Part shown: positions 1-6,855 of the stretch, in pieces
Position numbering within the stretch: the stretch's first letter is position 1
Layout: each line of letters begins with the position of its first letter
Made by a program: the position numbers and the translations under genes
The notes under the pieces: generated by a model
What the model was told of the DNA's origin: nothing
The model's input: only the letters and a program-made list of their open reading frames with translations
The model's database searches: none
Assembly (NCBI GenBank): GCA_050173015.1
Contig: JBFXLE010000001.1
Location: 160,001 to 224,000 of the forward strand
DNA length: 64,000 bases
Direction of reading: 5' to 3'
Source: Calditrichaceae bacterium
GTDB lineage: Bacteria > Calditrichota > Calditrichia > Calditrichales > JBFXGD01

Positions 1-36
1 CCTTTTGTTGCAAGAGTGATAAATTAATTTCTGGTT

Positions 37-480
37 TTAGAAGGGAAGATCATCCGATTCATGTCCATCGTCCGCGGACGGTTTCTCTGAAACCTTGCTG
101 TCATCCGAAGCAGGTTCATCCTGATATGTGGATTCACTATCACCTTTTGAGCCCAGAAGCTGCAGGTTAAGGGCAATAATCTCGGTTTTGTACTTTTTTT
201 GGCCTTGCTGGTCTTCCCAACTGCTTGTTTGCAGGCGCCCTTCCAGATAAACTAATTTACCCTTTTTTAAATACTCACCGACAAATTCAGCCGTTTTCCC
301 AAAAGTAACGATGTTGTGCCATTCGGTTTTATCCGTCCATGAACCTTCGGCATCCTTTTGGCCGTGATTTGTGGCAACAGAAAAGCTCGCGATTGCAGTT
401 CCGCCGGGCGAATACCGCATATCAGGGTCTTGGCCAAGGCGACCGATGATAATCGCTTTGTTCACAGTTCCTCGTGACAT
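37..480 (-). CDS. ssb: Single-stranded DNA-binding protein
   Basis: VNKAIIIGRLGQDP OB-fold start, TEWHNIV, acidic C-terminal tail DDLPF; GGAGG RBS. Confidence 0.97.
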   Translation of the reverse strand: MSRGTVNKAIIIGRLGQDPDMRYSPGGTAIASFSVATNHGQKDAEGSWTDKTEWHNIVTFGKTAEFVGEYLKKGKLVYLEGRLQTSSWEDQQGQKKYKTEIIALNLQLLGSKGDSESTYQDEPASDDSKVSEKPSADDGHESDDLPF

Positions 481-524
481 GAGTCCTCCAATGTTGGTTT
501 AAATTTGATAGATAGGTTATTTAG

Positions 525-567
525 AAAAATAGCCTCAGAACAGAATAAGACAAGTTCAGAGGCTATT
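525..567 (-). terminator. Intrinsic terminator-like hairpin downstream of the peptide array
   Basis: Minus strand AATAGCCTC-TGAAC...GTTC-TGAGGCTATT followed by TTT; lies between the last peptide gene and ssb. Confidence 0.65.
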
Positions 568-632
568 AAAGTTAAAAAAATTATCAAAAAATACAAGTTA
601 AAATATTTTAATTGACATTTACTTTCCGATCC

Positions 633-788
633 TTAAGGTTTCGGGCGCGGAGGCGGAGGTAAAGGAACAATAGTGGCGAATTCAGCGCCGGATCTTGGGC
701 TTGCATCCGTAGTTGCCGTACTCAGTATGGTCATAAAAATGGCCGCTGCGAAAACGAAGGTTACTATTATTGCTGCAATCTTTTTCAT
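633..788 (-). CDS. 51-aa signal-peptide-bearing, C-terminally proline-rich peptide, copy 1
   Basis: AGGAG-N7-ATG; MKK + hydrophobic core, ends VPLPPPPRPKP-stop; differs from copy 2 only by synonymous changes. Confidence 0.85.
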   Translation of the reverse strand: MKKIAAIIVTFVFAAAIFMTILSTATTDASPRSGAEFATIVPLPPPPRPKP

Positions 789-840
789 GTGATAACTCCT
801 TAAGACAGTGTTGTTGTAATTCATTCAATAAACCGTTTGA

Positions 841-996
841 TTATGGTTTTGGGCGCGGAGGCGGAGGTAAAGGAACAATAGTGGCAAATTCAGCGCCGGA
901 TCTTGGGCTTGCATCCGTAGTTGCTGTACTCAGTATGGTCATAAAAATGGCCGCTGCGAAAACAAAGGTTACTATAATTGCTGCAATCTTTTTCAT
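841..996 (-). CDS. 51-aa proline-rich peptide, copy 2 (protein identical to copy 1)
   Basis: Same AGGAG RBS; 6 nucleotide differences from copy 1, all at third codon positions. Confidence 0.85.
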   Translation of the reverse strand: MKKIAAIIVTFVFAAAIFMTILSTATTDASPRSGAEFATIVPLPPPPRPKP

Positions 997-1048
997 GTGA
1001 TAACTCCTTAATACAGTGTTGTTGTAATTCATTCAATGAACCGTTTGA

Positions 1049-1204
1049 TTATGGTTTTGGGCGCGGAGGCGGAGGTAAAGGAACAATAGTGGCGAATTCA
1101 GCGCCGGATTTTGGGCTTCCGTTTGTTGATGCTACGTCCACAACCGTGAAAACGATTGCTGCCGCAAATACCAATGCGACAATGAGGGAGGCCAACTTTT
1201 TCAT
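1049..1204 (-). CDS. 51-aa proline-rich peptide, copy 3 (diverged N-terminus)
   Basis: AGGAG RBS; MKKLASLIVALVFAAAIVFTVVDVASTNG-SPKSGAEFATIVPLPPPPRPKP. Confidence 0.85.
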   Translation of the reverse strand: MKKLASLIVALVFAAAIVFTVVDVASTNGSPKSGAEFATIVPLPPPPRPKP

Positions 1205-1300
1205 GTGATAACTCCTTTGTTGGGGGTGTGATTTGTATTTATGAAAAGAAAAGTAATTCCGTGAATAGGGGGCTGATAAACAGAAATAGTATGTCATGGA

Positions 1301-1660
1301 TCAGATCTTTCTTACAGCAATTTTGTAATTAAAAGATCCATCTAAAAATTGGGGGCTTCCGTGCGGGTAACAGGTTTAATTGAATAAATTAACTGTTATT
1401 TGAATCATCTCTGAATATTATCAGATCTTCCATACAGCAGTTCTGTAATTTAAAGATCCATCTAAAAATTGGGGGCTTCCGTGCGGGTAACAGGTTTAAT
1501 TGAATAAATTACCTGTTATTAGAATCGTCTCTGATTATTATCAGATCTTCCATACAGCAGTTCTGTAATTTAAAGATCCATCTAAAATTTTAAGGCTTCC
1601 GTGCGGTGAACAGGTTTAATTGAATAATTTACCTGTTAATTGAATCGTCGCTGATTATTA
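1301..1660. repeat. Three tandem 120-bp non-coding repeats, each with two inverted repeats
   Basis: Units 1301-1420, 1421-1540 and 1541-1660 align directly; each has GATCTT..AAGATC and AACAGGT-N15-ACCTGTT dyads (one mismatch in the first unit). Confidence 0.95.
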
Positions 1661-1847
1661 AATGAGTAGGACTAACCGGGATAATACTGCAAATCCAGGT
1701 TCTGTTGTCATGAAATTCAATGATACTGTATCTTTCAGGAAATTGGTTCTGAAGAATTTGGCGGATATCTGAGACGCATGAAAATGTCTGAACGATCAGA
1801 AAAAAAAGTGATATGGCAAATATAATAGGTTTTAGCAGTTCCCGCAT
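1629..1847 (-). CDS. Small hypothetical exported or lipoprotein-like protein (72 aa)
   Basis: GGAG RBS 6 nt before ATG; hydrophobic N-terminus ending TFSC; 3' end runs into the 120-bp repeat. Confidence 0.5.
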   Translation of the reverse strand: MRELLKPIIFAISLFFLIVQTFSCVSDIRQILQNQFPERYSIIEFHDNRTWICSIIPVSPTHLIISDDSINR

Positions 1848-1963
1848 CCCTGTCTCCAGTTGCTTAACGAGAACCTTCCGTGGTTGGATTTGACTTCCCT
1901 GGTGAGCTCAATATGAGCAGTAAAAGTCGAACAGTACGTGAGTCGACATAAATGATTTATAAG

Positions 1964-1991
1964 AATATAATTAATACATGTGAAAATGCAA
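1964..1991 (-). promoter_or_regulatory. Putative sigma70 promoter for the peptide unit
   Basis: Minus strand TTGCAT-N16-TATATT in an AT-rich intergenic region. Confidence 0.45.
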
Positions 1992-2130
1992 TAATTAATA
2001 TCTATATTATTGACATTTTAGTCACTTCCCATAAGCGCATTTAATTTAATTTTTTTATACCGCGGTTAAAACTTTGTTATAAAATTAATATTTTGCTAAA
2101 TTTAAGTCTTTGATCGGATACTACAGGAAA

Positions 2131-2631
2131 ATGGATCTATCTGTGAAAAATAATGAGAATATCTTGGCACAAAGGATTTTAATCACAGGTTTTACGCTGT
2201 TGTCGGTCTGGATGCTCATGTTATCTTTTGCCCCGATGTTAATGAACAGCGGTTCTTATGCGGCGCAGTACGCGGCGACCATCGTATATTTTATGACGGA
2301 TCCTGTTTGTCATCAGCTGCCGGAACGAAGTCTGTTTATTTCAGGAATACCCATGCCCGTGTGCGCGCGTTGCTATTTTATATATCTGGGTGGGTGGACG
2401 ACATTCCTGATCCCTGTTTTTAGCGGGAAAATCAATTTTTGGCGTTACAGAGTATATTTGATCATGGGGATAATTATTTTAGCGGAATTTGTATCTGAAA
2501 AAACCGGTCTTTACCAAAATTTGGCCGGGATACGGATGATCGCGGGATTCTTATTGGGAATACTGATATTCAGATTAATTATTGAAGCATTAAATTTGAA
2601 TGAACAAAGAGGGACAGAGGAAAATGGATAA
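2131..2631 (+). CDS. DUF2085-type membrane protein
   Basis: VCHQLPERSL...PVCARC motif with several TM segments; start approximate. Confidence 0.8.
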   Translation: MDLSVKNNENILAQRILITGFTLLSVWMLMLSFAPMLMNSGSYAAQYAATIVYFMTDPVCHQLPERSLFISGIPMPVCARCYFIYLGGWTTFLIPVFSGKINFWRYRVYLIMGIIILAEFVSEKTGLYQNLAGIRMIAGFLLGILIFRLIIEALNLNEQRGTEENG

Positions 2632-3118
2632 CAGGATTCTATACCAGGGAGCGGTGCTTGGCGGTACCGTGGCGGCTCTGACCGACGCTTTGCCGCTGCT
2701 AAATATTATTAATTGTCTTTGTTGTTTGGGAATTATATCAGGCGGGGTGGTGGCAGTCCTTTTTTACCGTAAAACGGCAGAACCCGAATACAGGGATCTC
2801 AATACGCCTTCCACGGTGCAGCTTGGGTTGATGGCCGGTCTGTTCGGCGCATTTATCTCCTTTGGACTGCAATATATCGTGTTTAAAATAATGGGAAACT
2901 GGCAGATAGAATTGCTGACAAATATGTTTGAAAATTTGGATGAAGTACCGGCTTTATGGGAAAATCTATATGAAGAAATTCAGAAGGAAGAATACCAGGG
3001 TTTTGCGGGAATGGCCATACTCATCCGCTCACTGATTATATTTCCTGTATTTTCTCTGATAGGCGCACTGATTACAAAGCGTTTTATGGGAAGAAAACAG
3101 GAGTCATCGGGTAGTTAA
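2624..3118 (+). CDS. Hypothetical membrane protein with a CLCC motif
   Basis: About 4 hydrophobic segments; overlaps the upstream stop (coupled); GAGG RBS. Confidence 0.75.
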   Translation: MDNRILYQGAVLGGTVAALTDALPLLNIINCLCCLGIISGGVVAVLFYRKTAEPEYRDLNTPSTVQLGLMAGLFGAFISFGLQYIVFKIMGNWQIELLTNMFENLDEVPALWENLYEEIQKEEYQGFAGMAILIRSLIIFPVFSLIGALITKRFMGRKQESSGS

Positions 3119-3126
3119 GAAAGTTT

Positions 3127-4203
3127 CTATTTTTCTGTCGCGACCTCTTCCAGGCGTTCAGAATGATAGGCAAGCCTTAATCCTTCAATCAACTCGTAGA
3201 TCTCACCTTCCATTACCCGGTCCAGCTTGTATAAAGTTAAACCGATGCGGTGGTCAGTAACGCGACCCTGAGGAAAATTGTAGGTTCTGATTTTAGCGCT
3301 TCTGTCACCTGAGCCTACCATGGATTTTCTTTGCGCGGCAATGGTACTGTTATGTTCGGAGATTGCTTGATCCAGTAAGCGGCTGCGAAGCACTTTAAGA
3401 GCTTTTGTTTTGTTTTTTAACTGAGATTTCTCGTCCTGGCAGGAAACCACAATTCCCGTAGGAACATGGGTGATGCGTACGGCGGAATCGGTAGTGTTGA
3501 CACTTTGTCCGCCCGGCCCGCTTGATCTGAAAACATCAATTCTCAGTTCATTGGGGTCAATTTCAATGTCAACTTCCTCCGCCTCGGGCAAAACAACAAC
3601 CGAAACAGCGGATGTATGAACCCGGCCCTGGGTTTCTGTGTCCGGAACACGTTGCACCCGATGCACACCGCTTTCAAACTTGAGTGTCCCATAGGTGCTG
3701 TCTCCCTCAATCGAGAAAATGATTTCCTTAAATCCGCCTCTTTCTGAAGGATTGGAATTCATAATTTCAATTTTCAGTCCATTGGCTTCACAAAATTTAC
3801 TATACATTCGGTAAAGATCGCCGGCAAATATAGCGGCTTCATCGCCACCGGTGCCGGCCCTGATTTCCATAATGGCATTTTTGTGGTCATCAGGATCCTT
3901 TGGAATAAGAAGCATTTTTAATTTTTCTTCGAATTGCTCAATTTGTTCAGACAAATCTTCGAGCTCCGCCTCCGCGAGCTCAATGAGTTCCGGGTCGCTT
4001 TCGCCGGAAATAATACTCTGATTGCCTTCATAATTGTTGAGAACAATTAAGTATGGATCACCGACATCCAGAATTTTTGTAAGTTCCCGATGTTCTCTGG
4101 CGAGCTCTTTGTACCGCGTTTGATCATTATGGATATCAGGATCAGAAAGCTGAATATTCAGCTTTTCGAATCTTTCTTTTATTTTAAGAATTTTATCTTT
4201 CAT
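3127..4203 (-). CDS. prfA: Peptide chain release factor 1
   Basis: GGQ motif (SGPGGQSVN), RVQRVPDTE with the PxT tripeptide of RF1. Confidence 0.97.
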
Positions 4204-4213
4204 GTTGTTACCC

Positions 4214-5224
4214 TTAAAGAGAAGCCGCGATAACTGTTGAACGGATCACAGGATCATTCACCAGGTCACTCTTATAGTCATCCCCGAGCGCGGCCTGCAA
4301 TGCGGCTATGGCTACTTCAAGCTGCTCGTCATCCGGTGGACTGGTTGTGATGCGCTGTAAGCCCAATACCGGAGCGATAAGCGCCTGTACAACAGGATGA
4401 TTTGTATTGTTGGCAGAAGCCTTTAACGCTTCGTAACTCAATCCCCCTACAAAAGGGATCAGGGGCAGATGGGTCAGTATTCTGATCAAAAAATTTATAT
4501 CCCCGTACCACATCATGACCATCGTATCTACAAAAGCAAAAAACAACAGGCTGACAAGCATGACGATGACCAGAAAACTGGTCCCGCAGCGGGGGTGAAA
4601 TGTGGTGTATTTTTGAGCGTTTTCAGGAGAAAGAGTGACTTTGTCCTCAAAGGCAAAAATGGTTTTGTGCTCCGCGCCGTGGTACTGGAATAGTCTTTTT
4701 ATATCCGGCATAAACGAAATGCCCCAGACATATAAAAGAAAAAACAAAATTCTTATCGCACCGGCGGTAAAATTGAAGGTGATGGCCTGTTTCTCGATAT
4801 TGAAGACCACTGTAGTAATATAGAGCGGAAGAACAAAAAAGACGGCCGTTCCAATGAGCAGGGCGATAGAAACCGAAAAAATAGCGCTTAAAGTAGACAT
4901 CCCTTTTTTACCGTTTTTCTTCGTCTTTTTACCTTCTTTTTCTTCTCTCTCATTTATATCTTCCATGGCCTTGTCCGCGGACCATTGAAGTGTTTTGATT
5001 CCCAGAATCATCACCTCAATGAGCATAATCGCGCCCCGGATAATCGGAATATTAAGAATTTTTTTACGCTGCACCAATGACTGATATTCATTGACAAGAA
5101 TTTCAATATTGCCGTTTGCTCTGCGAATCGCTGTGGCGATGCGTTTTGGTGACCGCATCATGACACCTTCAATGACTGCCTGACCACCGACGGGCATTAT
5201 TTTTTCTTCTGACGCCTGATTCAT
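4214..5224 (-). CDS. DUF1385 (YqhQ-like) membrane protein
   Basis: [19 protein letters not shown] and HPRCGTSF motifs; usual rpmE-prfA context. Confidence 0.9.
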
Positions 5225-5250
5225 AAAAATTACACCTTGAAAATTAAACC

Positions 5251-5294
5251 AAAAAAAAACGGAATGATATGGAACTCCATTGCATCCCGTTTTT
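5251..5294 (-). terminator. Intrinsic terminator after rpmE
   Basis: Minus strand ACGGGATG...CATTCCGT followed by a T9 run. Confidence 0.7.
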
Positions 5295-5326
5295 AAATTT
5301 CATATACAACCCTTTGCAGGGGACGA

Positions 5327-5530
5327 TTATTTGCGATTGTATTTCTTCATAAATTTTTCAACACGACCTGCAGAGTCAACCAGCTTTTGTTTGCCGGTAT
5401 AAAACGGATGACAATTTGAACAAATTTCCACTTTCAAATCGCCAACGACTGAGCGTGTTTCAAATGTGTTTCCACAAGCGCAACTCACCGTACCTACTTT
5501 ATAATCCGGATGGATATCTTTTTTCATCAT
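5327..5530 (-). CDS. rpmE: 50S ribosomal protein L31, zinc-binding type
   Basis: [26 protein letters not shown]. Confidence 0.97.
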
Positions 5531-5604
5531 ACACCTCCTAGAGCCCTTGAAATTGAATCTCGTAATATAATATGATTTTTTTGGAATTTCAAGCTCTATT
5601 CATA

Positions 5605-6855
5605 TCAGGAACTCATAGAACGTAAAAATTCTTTATTGTTTTTTGTGTCACGCATCTTGTCAAGCAGGAATTCCATGCCTTCGATGATATTCATTTCATT
5701 GAGAAGTTTTCTCAATATCCAGATACGCGCCAGCTCTTCACGGCTGAGAAGGAGTTCTTCTTTTCTGGTACCCGATTTATTAATATCAATTGATGGGAAG
5801 AATCTTCTATCAGACAGACGGCGGTCGAGAACCAATTCCATATTGCCTGTTCCTTTGAATTCTTCAAAGATAACCTCATCCATTCTGGAGCCGGTGTCGA
5901 TCAAAGCGGTGGCAATGATAGTAAGGCTGCCGCCTTCTTCGACATTACGGGCAGATCCGAAGAAACGTTTTGGTTTTTGTAGCGCATTGGAATCAACACC
6001 ACCGGAGAGAATCTTGCCGCTATGCGGGACAACCGTATTATGAGCGCGGGCCAGACGGGTTATACTGTCTAACAGAATCACAACGTCTTTTTTGTATTCT
6101 ACAAGACGCTTGGCCTTCTCAAGCACCATATCCGCAACCTGAACGTGGCGCTCCGCGGGCTCGTCAAAGGTAGAACTAACAACTTCTGCGTTTACTGATC
6201 TTTCCATGTCGGTAACTTCTTCAGGACGCTCATCGATGAGCAGTACCATTAATTCGACTTCCGGCTGATTTTTAGTAATGGCGTTGGCGATTTTCTGCAG
6301 AAGAATAGTTTTACCGGTTCTCGGCTGGGCGACAATCAGTCCGCGCTGACCTTTGCCGATGGGGGTTAATAAATTCATTATTCGTGTGGAGTAGTCACTG
6401 CGGTCGGTCTCGAGTTCGATTCGCTGCAGAGGATAGAGCGGTGTAAGTGTGTCGAAAAGGTTGCGTGATCTGGCTTTATCCGGGCTTTCAAAATTAACGG
6501 CCTCCACGCGCAATAGCGCGAAGAAACGTTCATTATCCTTGGGGGGGCGAATCTGTCCGCTTACGGTATCTCCGGTTCTTAGCCCAAACCGTTTGATCTG
6601 AGATGGAGATATATAGATATCGTCGGGACCGGGGAGATAACTATAATTTTGTGAACGAAGGAATCCGTAGCCGTCCGGCAAAATTTCCAGCACACCCTTC
6701 GAAAAAATTAATCCTTCCTGAGCTGTCTGCTCTTCTAAAATGCGAAATATCAATTCCGCTTTTTTTAGACCGGAGAATCCGGTTATATTCATATCTTGAG
6801 CAATCTTTGTCAGCTCAGTGATTTTTTTGTCTTTTAATTCTTCAATGTCTAACAT
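5605..6855 (-). CDS. rho: Transcription termination factor Rho
   Basis: [45 protein letters not shown]. Confidence 0.98.

Follow-up and report, generated by a model that had tools for sequence, protein, structure and literature searches.

Tandem 120-bp units with CsrA-type sites between the genes of a small-protein operon in a Calditrichaceae bacterium

The repeat array and the operon that holds it

The window analyzed in this work is a stretch of 64,000 nt from a Calditrichaceae bacterium (contig JBFXLE010000001.1, positions 160,001-224,000; all the coordinates below are window positions), in which three 120-bp units lie head to tail at 1301-1660 on the minus strand. Read along that strand, the locus comprises a promoter, a leader of ~110 nt, a gene for a protein of 72 amino acids (aa), the units, a spacer, three small-protein genes, and a terminator-like hairpin. 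A first-pass annotation had described the units as structured, non-coding, placed directly upstream of three peptide genes, and co-transcribed with them; its interpretation is overall partly supported by the analyses reported here, on the basis of which we tentatively suggest that the units might form a CsrA-binding module of the mRNA. In the following, G000 is the window genome, G001 that of a sister species of the same genus, and L034 the locus of a metagenome relative. The features of the array and of its surroundings are as follows.

1541-1660, minus strand: unit A, the first in the direction of transcription; its leading 32 nt (1660-1629) belong to the upstream open reading frame (ORF), of which they form the final codons and the stop
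1421-1540, minus strand: unit B, delimited by repeat finding and unit alignment
1301-1420, minus strand: unit C, the most diverged copy of G000 with 86-92% identity to units A and B, in which the third GGA is lost
1488-1518, minus strand: hairpin/dyad H1 of unit B, UAACAGGU-N15-ACCUGUUA, spanning the stop-codon position of the ORF frame
1423-1459, minus strand: hairpin/dyad H2 of unit B, outer stem GGAUCUUU/GAAGAUCU, inner stem UACAG/CUGUA
1964-1991, minus strand: promoter-like element TTGCAT-N16-TATATT
1629-1847, minus strand: 72-aa small membrane-protein gene (72 codons)
1205-1300, minus strand: 96-nt spacer from the array to the first peptide gene, holding CACGGAAU (1263-1256)
1204-1049, 996-841, and 788-633, minus strand: three tandem 51-aa protein genes, whose products have a hydrophobic N-terminal segment and then ...EFATIVPLPPPPRPKP
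523-567, minus strand: intrinsic-terminator-like hairpin and ensuing U run, between the last peptide gene and ssb
480-37, minus strand: ssb
4203-3127, minus strand: prfA
2110-3118, plus strand: genes for DUF2085 and DUF4199 membrane proteins, in the interval from the operon promoter to prfA

Tandem Repeats Finder delimited the array at 1300-1660 (period 120, 3.0 copies, 92% matches, score 596) and the gap-free alignment of the three units gave a mean column identity of 95%, which bears out the description of three near-identical units. The two dyads, as well as the segment CCGCACGGAAGCC (minus sense) lying between them in all the units, were found exactly where the first-pass annotation had placed them: in unit B, TAACAGGT (1488-1495) pairs with ACCTGTTA (1511-1518), and the second dyad is made up of GATCTT (1424-1429), TACAG (1433-1437), CTGTA (1443-1447), and AAGATC (1453-1458). 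As had also been claimed, the array is not one of clustered regularly interspaced short palindromic repeats (CRISPR), since the units abut directly, with a period of 120 and no variable spacers. Stop codons occur in all six frames over the 360 nt (11, 11, and 5 in the minus frames, as had been noted for that strand; 14, 10, and 6 in the plus frames), and a 14-codon AUG frame running over the unit junctions is missing from four of the nine known units; thus, a coding potential of the units was rejected. The array is nevertheless not wholly non-coding, because the first 32 nt of unit A end the 72-codon ORF; the coincidence of the last 32 nt of this ORF, stop included, with the start of unit A implies that the duplicated segment began inside the gene. 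An origin of the units from the peptide genes was discarded, the local alignment score of 20 being equalled by 88 of 300 shuffles.

Within the 4.34-Mb, 97.5%-complete genome, the array has no second occurrence: blastn gave no significant match besides the array itself, 22 further matches having E-values of 0.7 or more, so that it represents neither a dispersed miniature inverted-repeat transposable element nor a repetitive extragenic palindromic element. No match to the array was found in phage and plasmid collections. In agreement with the statement that the units could not be matched to a known riboswitch or ribozyme, an Rfam search of window positions 1-6000 at E≤10 returned no family match to the array and only chance-level hits, as did a search of 10 related loci at E≤1.

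As for transcription, 12 of 13 homologous loci have the promoter-like element in the same position (the window, L009, L016-L022, L024, L030, and L034), and a consensus scan of both strands, which as regards promoters covered the sigma-70 type, found no promoter-like or terminator-like site within 1301-1660. The array lies on the coding strand; given the conserved promoter upstream and no terminator-like site in between, the natural reading is that the array and the peptide genes are transcribed together from the upstream promoter, as we infer here, in line with the idea of a repeated, co-transcribed module. The array is indeed upstream of the three peptide genes, but not directly, since the 96-nt spacer separates them. 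A sigma-54 promoter (TGG-N9-TGC on the plus strand, spotted by eye) was rejected, because units with CCTTAAAA lack the GG element.

The 72-aa ORF has a ratio of nonsynonymous to synonymous substitution rates of 0.22 versus G001 and of 0.08 versus the closer metagenome relative and, judged from these values, is a genuine gene; its family has no name in Pfam or NCBIfam. The 51-aa family, whose members combine a hydrophobic N-terminus with a subsequent [YF]A[ST]I[VI]P[LI]PPPP and often a Lys-rich tail, has no name in Pfam, NCBIfam, or Atlas. It occurs in 12 of 39 genomes of the order (families f1, f2, and f4) as one to four tandem genes, with weaker occurrences in part of the genomes of the class. 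These genes adjoin ssb in the loci examined, with prfA on the opposite side wherever the fetched stretch reaches it; the two DUF genes are interposed in the window genus only, prfA abutting the promoter region directly in the other families. The window paralogues differ at one position (R/K) of their 22 C-terminal residues and much more in their N-terminal parts.

Conservation and copy number of the units

The second unit of G001 matches unit A of G000 at 96% identity and a unit of the metagenome relative at 97%, whereas the identity between G000 and G001 is 70% over the promoter and leader, 69% over the spacer, 83% over the small ORF, and 90% over the peptide gene, with a synonymous divergence of 0.38-0.64 between the same genomes. 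In other words, the conserved unit carries 4-5 differences versus the ~36 expected at the rate of the flanks. Such a contrast between 96-97% in the unit and 70% in the flanks implies a strong purifying selection on the unit; from these identities, at least one unit per array is under a purifying selection as strong as that acting on conserved protein positions, and the array, to judge by the same comparison, is clearly functional. The terminal units are freer to vary: unit 1 of G001 is ~80% identical to all the others and unit C of G000 is 86-93% identical to them.

Outside G000, a blastn search of 61 genomes found the units in G001 only; a search with nhmmer on 21 peptide loci yielded no further units, a covariance model run on 101 genomes recovered three units in G000 and two in G001 (three other hits having E-values of 0.25-0.86), and Tandem Repeats Finder, applied to 20 loci, confined the non-coding 120-nt arrays to the window lineage. 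The two units of G001 are of 119 and 120 nt, and four units are carried by one metagenome contig, ~95% identical to the window, that was retrieved by a metagenome scan. The copy number is thus 2, 3, and 4 in three close relatives (G001, G000, and the metagenome contig, respectively), these being assembly counts: the contigs of three sequencing runs break inside the repeats and none spans the array. The contigs from two of the three sequencing runs differ in unit C at four letters (1392 A>C, 1401 T>A, 1407 A>G, and 1415 A>T), all of which change to the unit-B state, the first restoring the stem of H1; they reflect either strain variation or a further unit collapsed in the assembly.

The four units of L034 (426-905) alternate between two subtypes, having GCCUUAAAA or GCCCC(C)AAU after the core, with a super-period of 239 bp (96% matches), which implies that this array grew by the duplication of a two-unit block. 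No 120-bp units accompany the peptide arrays in 10 other genomes of the order, so that the module is a genus-specific addition rather than a conserved part of the operon; an absence next to homologous peptide arrays, which the first-pass annotation had listed among the observations that would speak against its interpretation, is therefore found in part. On the whole, as far as the sequence comparisons go, the module is real, selected, lineage-specific, and non-coding.

It might be argued that the array is nothing but a neutral repeat of the variable-number type, generated by the duplication of the 3' end of the ORF and of the spacer at a recombination-prone locus. The apparently accidental position of the unit boundary inside the ORF, the different copy numbers in close relatives, the stronger divergence of the terminal units, and the independent tandem duplication of the neighbouring peptide genes in several lineages are all in agreement with this idea. 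However, a neutral repeat should have diverged like its flanks or like synonymous sites, and the conservation of one unit between species argues against it; we therefore consider a neutral origin very unlikely.

Fold of the units and other possible roles

The first-pass annotation had regarded the units as structured RNA. A two-hairpin model of the nine units (H1 and H2, 28 pairs) leaves 91.6% of the cells paired, compared with 31-51% when the partners are slid, but the shuffle control gives 91.5%, and in none of the 28 pairs have both sides changed. Three pairs vary on one side with the pairing kept (G-C to G-U, U-G to U-A, and A-U to G-U), six of the 28 depart from the model only by unpaired cells, and the breaks include U-C, C-A, and A-C. 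RNAalifold points the same way, with a covariation term of +0.21. H1 and H2 are present in the centroid structures of all three units; the z-scores of the fold, from -0.7 to -2.1 for single units (either strand) and -0.77 for the whole array, are near those of shuffled sequences. With these z-scores and no compensatory change in nine units, the term “structured” finds no statistical support. As to the differences between copies said to preserve the pairing, the change from U-G to U-A in the unit at 1301-1420 is real (column pair 89-111), but all such changes are one-sided and others break pairs. It must be kept in mind that units sharing 79-98% identity leave little power to detect covariation. 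The one-sided changes produce wobble pairs (G-U) on the mRNA strand only and A-C on the other strand, which gives a weak hint in favor of the mRNA strand. The idea of a riboswitch or of tandem aptamers finds no support either, given the 0 two-sided changes in 28 pairs and the lack of any Rfam match.

These data bear on the possibility that the units are a cis-acting RNA module independent of CsrA, i.e., a processing or stability element, a binder of a ligand or of a protein, or a zone of conditional Rho termination. In the first case, the levels of the membrane-protein cistron would be uncoupled from those of the peptide cistrons; in the last one, the ~425 nt of untranslated RNA (1628-1205) would be the relevant feature. 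Such a module would fit a conservation that spans almost the whole unit, both hairpin loops included, the recurrence of H1 and H2 in the centroids, the excess of pairing over the slid partners, and the polycistronic position. The absence of compensatory changes, the equally high shuffle control, and the near-shuffled fold energies speak against it, and neither an Rfam family nor, in the 101 genomes scanned with the covariance model, any hit outside the genus comes to its aid; it is a possible explanation, though a doubtful one.

The same two dyads per unit, with arms of 6-8 bp and two GATC sites within the outer one, could be read at the DNA level, as imperfect palindromes bound by a dimeric protein that blocks or loops the operon, and several protein contacts would suit the whole-unit conservation. 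Nevertheless, the array falls in transcribed DNA, ~300-650 bp downstream of the conserved promoter; the adjacent genes (DUF2085, DUF4199, prfA, and ssb) include no regulator; the hits in the genome are at chance level (0 for ACAGGT-N15-ACCTGT and 2 for TACAG-N5-CTGTA); and several stem positions are G-T, the one-sided changes breaking the symmetry of the dyads. An operator array is, in our opinion, unlikely.

Two further roles raised by the first-pass annotation were those of processed small RNAs (sRNAs) and of antitoxin-like RNAs; the genes downstream encode small hydrophobic proteins. The ToxI repeats of type III toxin-antitoxin systems are of ~36 nt, tandemly arranged, and co-transcribed upstream of the endoribonuclease toxin that cuts them; the units of the array, in contrast, are of 120 nt and precede genes for 51-aa proline-rich proteins without a nuclease domain. 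A ToxIN-like system was thus rejected, as these proteins match no Pfam or NCBIfam family, and no ToxN-like endoribonuclease gene is found downstream. An antitoxin of type I or III acting on the peptides finds no more favor: there is no significant complementarity between the units and the start regions of the peptide genes (the duplex energies are matched by 27-110 of 200 shuffles), the copy numbers of units and peptide genes are not tied to each other, and the peptide family is conserved across the order beside housekeeping genes, unlike typical type I toxins. The one low shuffle count, 5 of 200, concerns the opposite strand of the units versus the leader of the small ORF and is probably due to the CACGGAAG word that the two have in common. 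Tandem arrays of sRNA genes do exist: in heterocystous cyanobacteria, the cited text describes 12 copies of nsiR1, near-identical non-coding units in variable number beside a linked gene, much as in the array analyzed here, each repeat having its own promoter and giving a 60-nt sRNA (PMC4030482). The 120-bp units differ in this last respect, as no promoter-like or terminator-like site falls inside them on either strand, and we hold independent sRNA genes or an RNA antitoxin array to be highly improbable.

CsrA-type sites and their interpretation

The segment CCGCACGGAAGCC conserved between the dyads contains a site of the CsrA type, CANGGANG, which the first-pass annotation had not recognized. 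According to the cited texts, CANGGANG in hexaloops is the high-affinity consensus of CsrA/RsmE (PMC4894983), the consensus obtained by SELEX is RUACARGGAUGU (PMC7652899), and one CsrA dimer bridges sites 10-63 nt apart, with an optimum of ~18 and a distance of 21 nt in the flaA leader (PMC4894983, PMC7652899). The sites found in the units and in the leader of the operon are listed below.

1476-1483, minus strand: CACGGAAG as site 1 of unit B, matching CANGGANG perfectly; its counterparts are at 1596-1603 (unit A) and 1356-1363 (unit C)
1456-1461, minus strand: AUGGAU as site 2 of unit B, of the ANGGAN type; its counterparts are at 1576-1581 (unit A) and 1336-1341 (unit C)
1845-1901, minus strand: leader with three CANGGANG sites, i.e., CAGGGAAG (1901-1894), CACGGAAG (1882-1875), and CAGGGAUG (1852-1845)
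1872-1885, minus strand: leader hairpin AACC-ACGGAA-GGUU, with the second leader site CACGGAAG inside

The GGA of site 2 lies 21 nt downstream of that of site 1, and all nine known units have CA[C/A]GGAAG followed, 20-21 nt downstream, by A[U/A]GGAU. In the leader, 19 nt separate CAGGGAAG from CACGGAAG, with CAGGGAUG overlapping the start codon of the 72-aa ORF, while the GGA of CACGGAAU in the spacer is 45 nt upstream of that in the Shine-Dalgarno sequence AAGGAG (1217-1212) of the first peptide gene. Genome-wide, CANGGANG has 1723 hits (0.2 per kb per strand), and its densest same-strand cluster is this locus, with six sites within 540 nt, all on the mRNA strand; the runner-up has four sites (contig C51) and falls in coding sequence. 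Between the orthologous sites of G000, G001, and the metagenome relative, five of seven substitutions fall at the two N positions and none in the A, G, G, and A (binomial P=0.013, the substitutions having been tallied by eye from the alignments).

The leader hairpin is shared by the operon family: in 11 loci (8 distinct sequences; e.g., L016 1750-1763, L020 1898-1911, and L024 1315-1328), it consists of a 4-bp stem and a hexaloop A-N-G-G-A-N, in which the A, G, G, and A never vary. The stem reads AACC/GGUU in the window genus and CUGA/UCAG in family f2, both partners of each of the four pairs having changed, and 84% of the cells pair versus 47.5% after shuffling, with a covariation score of 0.857 versus 0.286 (0 of 500 shuffles being as high). 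Two sites 19-21 nt apart occur in 7 of the 11 leaders under a strict A.GGA pattern; by eye, three more have CAGGA or UAGGA 18-19 nt upstream, and G002 has none. This hairpin is, in our view, a candidate new cis-regulatory RNA motif of the operon family.

In two genomes, G007 and G017 (L020 ~1880-1915 and L022 ~675-710, minus strand), the UCAG 3' arm is also part of a second hairpin, CUCAGG-UAAC-CCUGAG, recognized by eye, which covers the Shine-Dalgarno sequence GAGGAG of the small ORF; the two hairpins being mutually exclusive, their arrangement suggests that the leader of these genomes might act as a switch.

The genome encodes CsrA (PF02599, 86.5 bits; G000:C2:236584-236739, L033 1501-1740), with both L4 and R44, which are RNA-binding residues of CsrA in the cited account (PMC7652899). 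The gene stands alone between enoyl-CoA hydratase-like and EamA-like transporter genes (named by eye), with no flagellar genes adjacent to it. FliW and flagellin were not found in the 97.5%-complete genome, and a genome-wide search gave no CsrB, RsmY, or RsmZ above the cut-off: CsrB had no hit, and the best scores of RsmZ (25.9 bits versus a cut-off of 44) and of RsmY (14.5 versus 57) were both outside the array. The best RsmZ-like hit (contig C6) was rejected as a sponge RNA, since it corresponds to the 3' end of a gene plus its terminator.

On these grounds, we propose that the units may constitute a genus-specific, tandemly amplified CsrA-binding cis-RNA module in the mRNA, a tentative reading to which we assign a probability of about 0.4. 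The operon would already have been a likely target of CsrA through its leader, by virtue of the ANGGAN hexaloop hairpin and of the GGA sites near the start codon; then, in this genus, duplications of a 120-nt segment with a dual CsrA site would have placed 2-4 copies of it between the first cistron and those of the peptides. The two GGA sites of each unit, 21 nt apart, have a geometry that one CsrA dimer could bridge, so each unit might bind one dimer and the array would add 2-4 dimer-binding modules. Two outcomes, at least, can be imagined: the array might strengthen or tune the control by CsrA (of translation or stability) over the downstream peptide cistrons, or the operon mRNA, if abundant, might become a sink for CsrA and titrate it. 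Transcription from the upstream promoter, the binding of CsrA, and the regulatory outcome are all parts of this scheme that we infer from the sequence. A stronger version, in which a CsrA sponge is being built by tandem duplication inside the mRNA of a highly conserved operon, so that the expression of the operon sets the level of free CsrA and the copy number tunes it, appears to us rather improbable; it would concern a phylum, the Calditrichota, in which CsrA would have neither FliW as a partner nor any known RNA antagonist.

Several observations weigh against a CsrA-binding module. The density of the CANGGANG cluster is inflated, as three of its six hits are repeat copies. Site 1 of the units is flanked by two complementary bases on each side (GC/GC) rather than by a 4-bp stem like that of the leader; the predicted probability of being unpaired is 0.40-0.47 for its GGA, versus a regional mean of 0.49, and 0.03-0.34 for the GGAs of sites 2 and 3 (0.03-0.17 for site 2), which are thus mostly paired. 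Moreover, nearly the whole 120 nt are conserved, well beyond the two GGA sites, so that CsrA sites alone do not explain the constraint, and the relatives whose peptide arrays have no units manage without them. The presence of csrA is not discriminating either, the gene being nearly universal in the class (52 of the 61 genomes sampled). Lastly, the 14-mers of the leader hairpin were hand-picked around the motif, and their covariation rests on few independent events, because the sequences are essentially two clades.

Comparison with known CsrA systems and significance

Among the known systems, the array would work most like the CsrA-binding leaders of mRNAs, while resembling the sponge sRNAs in its logic. 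As in the leaders of Campylobacter flaA and Salmonella fim described in the cited review (PMC4894983), ANGGA/CANGGANG sites ~20 nt apart lie on the mRNA; the same source reports that the flaA 5' untranslated region, i.e., that of a target mRNA itself, can titrate CsrA and that CsrA can bind between the genes of a polycistron. The array differs from these leaders in being a 120-nt module repeated two to four times, between cistrons rather than in one short 5' untranslated region; a further difference is that the searches of the genome gave no FliW and no flagellin. The sponge RNAs CsrB, CsrC, RsmX, RsmY, and RsmZ (RF00018, RF00166, and RF00195) bind CsrA dimers, as summarized in the cited source, through many GGA sites in loops and linkers (PMC7652899). 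The array does not belong to these Rfam families and is embedded in an mRNA, with neither promoter nor terminator of its own. Its sites, ~1 GGA per 40 nt, are less dense than those of CsrB.

CsrA is widespread, and its RNA partners are known, as far as the cited accounts go, almost only in Proteobacteria, as sponge sRNAs, and in the FliW/flagellin circuit of flagellated bacteria (PMC7652899, PMC9029176); for the Calditrichaeota, Table 1 of the latter reports a single annotated sRNA. A literature search on Calditrichaeota and CsrA found no treatment of the subject, and this search is the sole basis on which we regard the module as not described in print.

Independently of any role of CsrA, the analysis defines a conserved, unannotated small-protein operon between prfA and ssb, together with its promoter and with a leader hairpin whose stem covaries around the hexaloop. 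If the units do form a CsrA-binding module, they would offer a testable handle on the wiring of CsrA in this lineage, here for a genome that encodes CsrA but in which FliW, flagellin, and the known sponges were not detected; should this be true, the array would also show that repetitive CsrA-binding RNAs can arise by tandem duplication.

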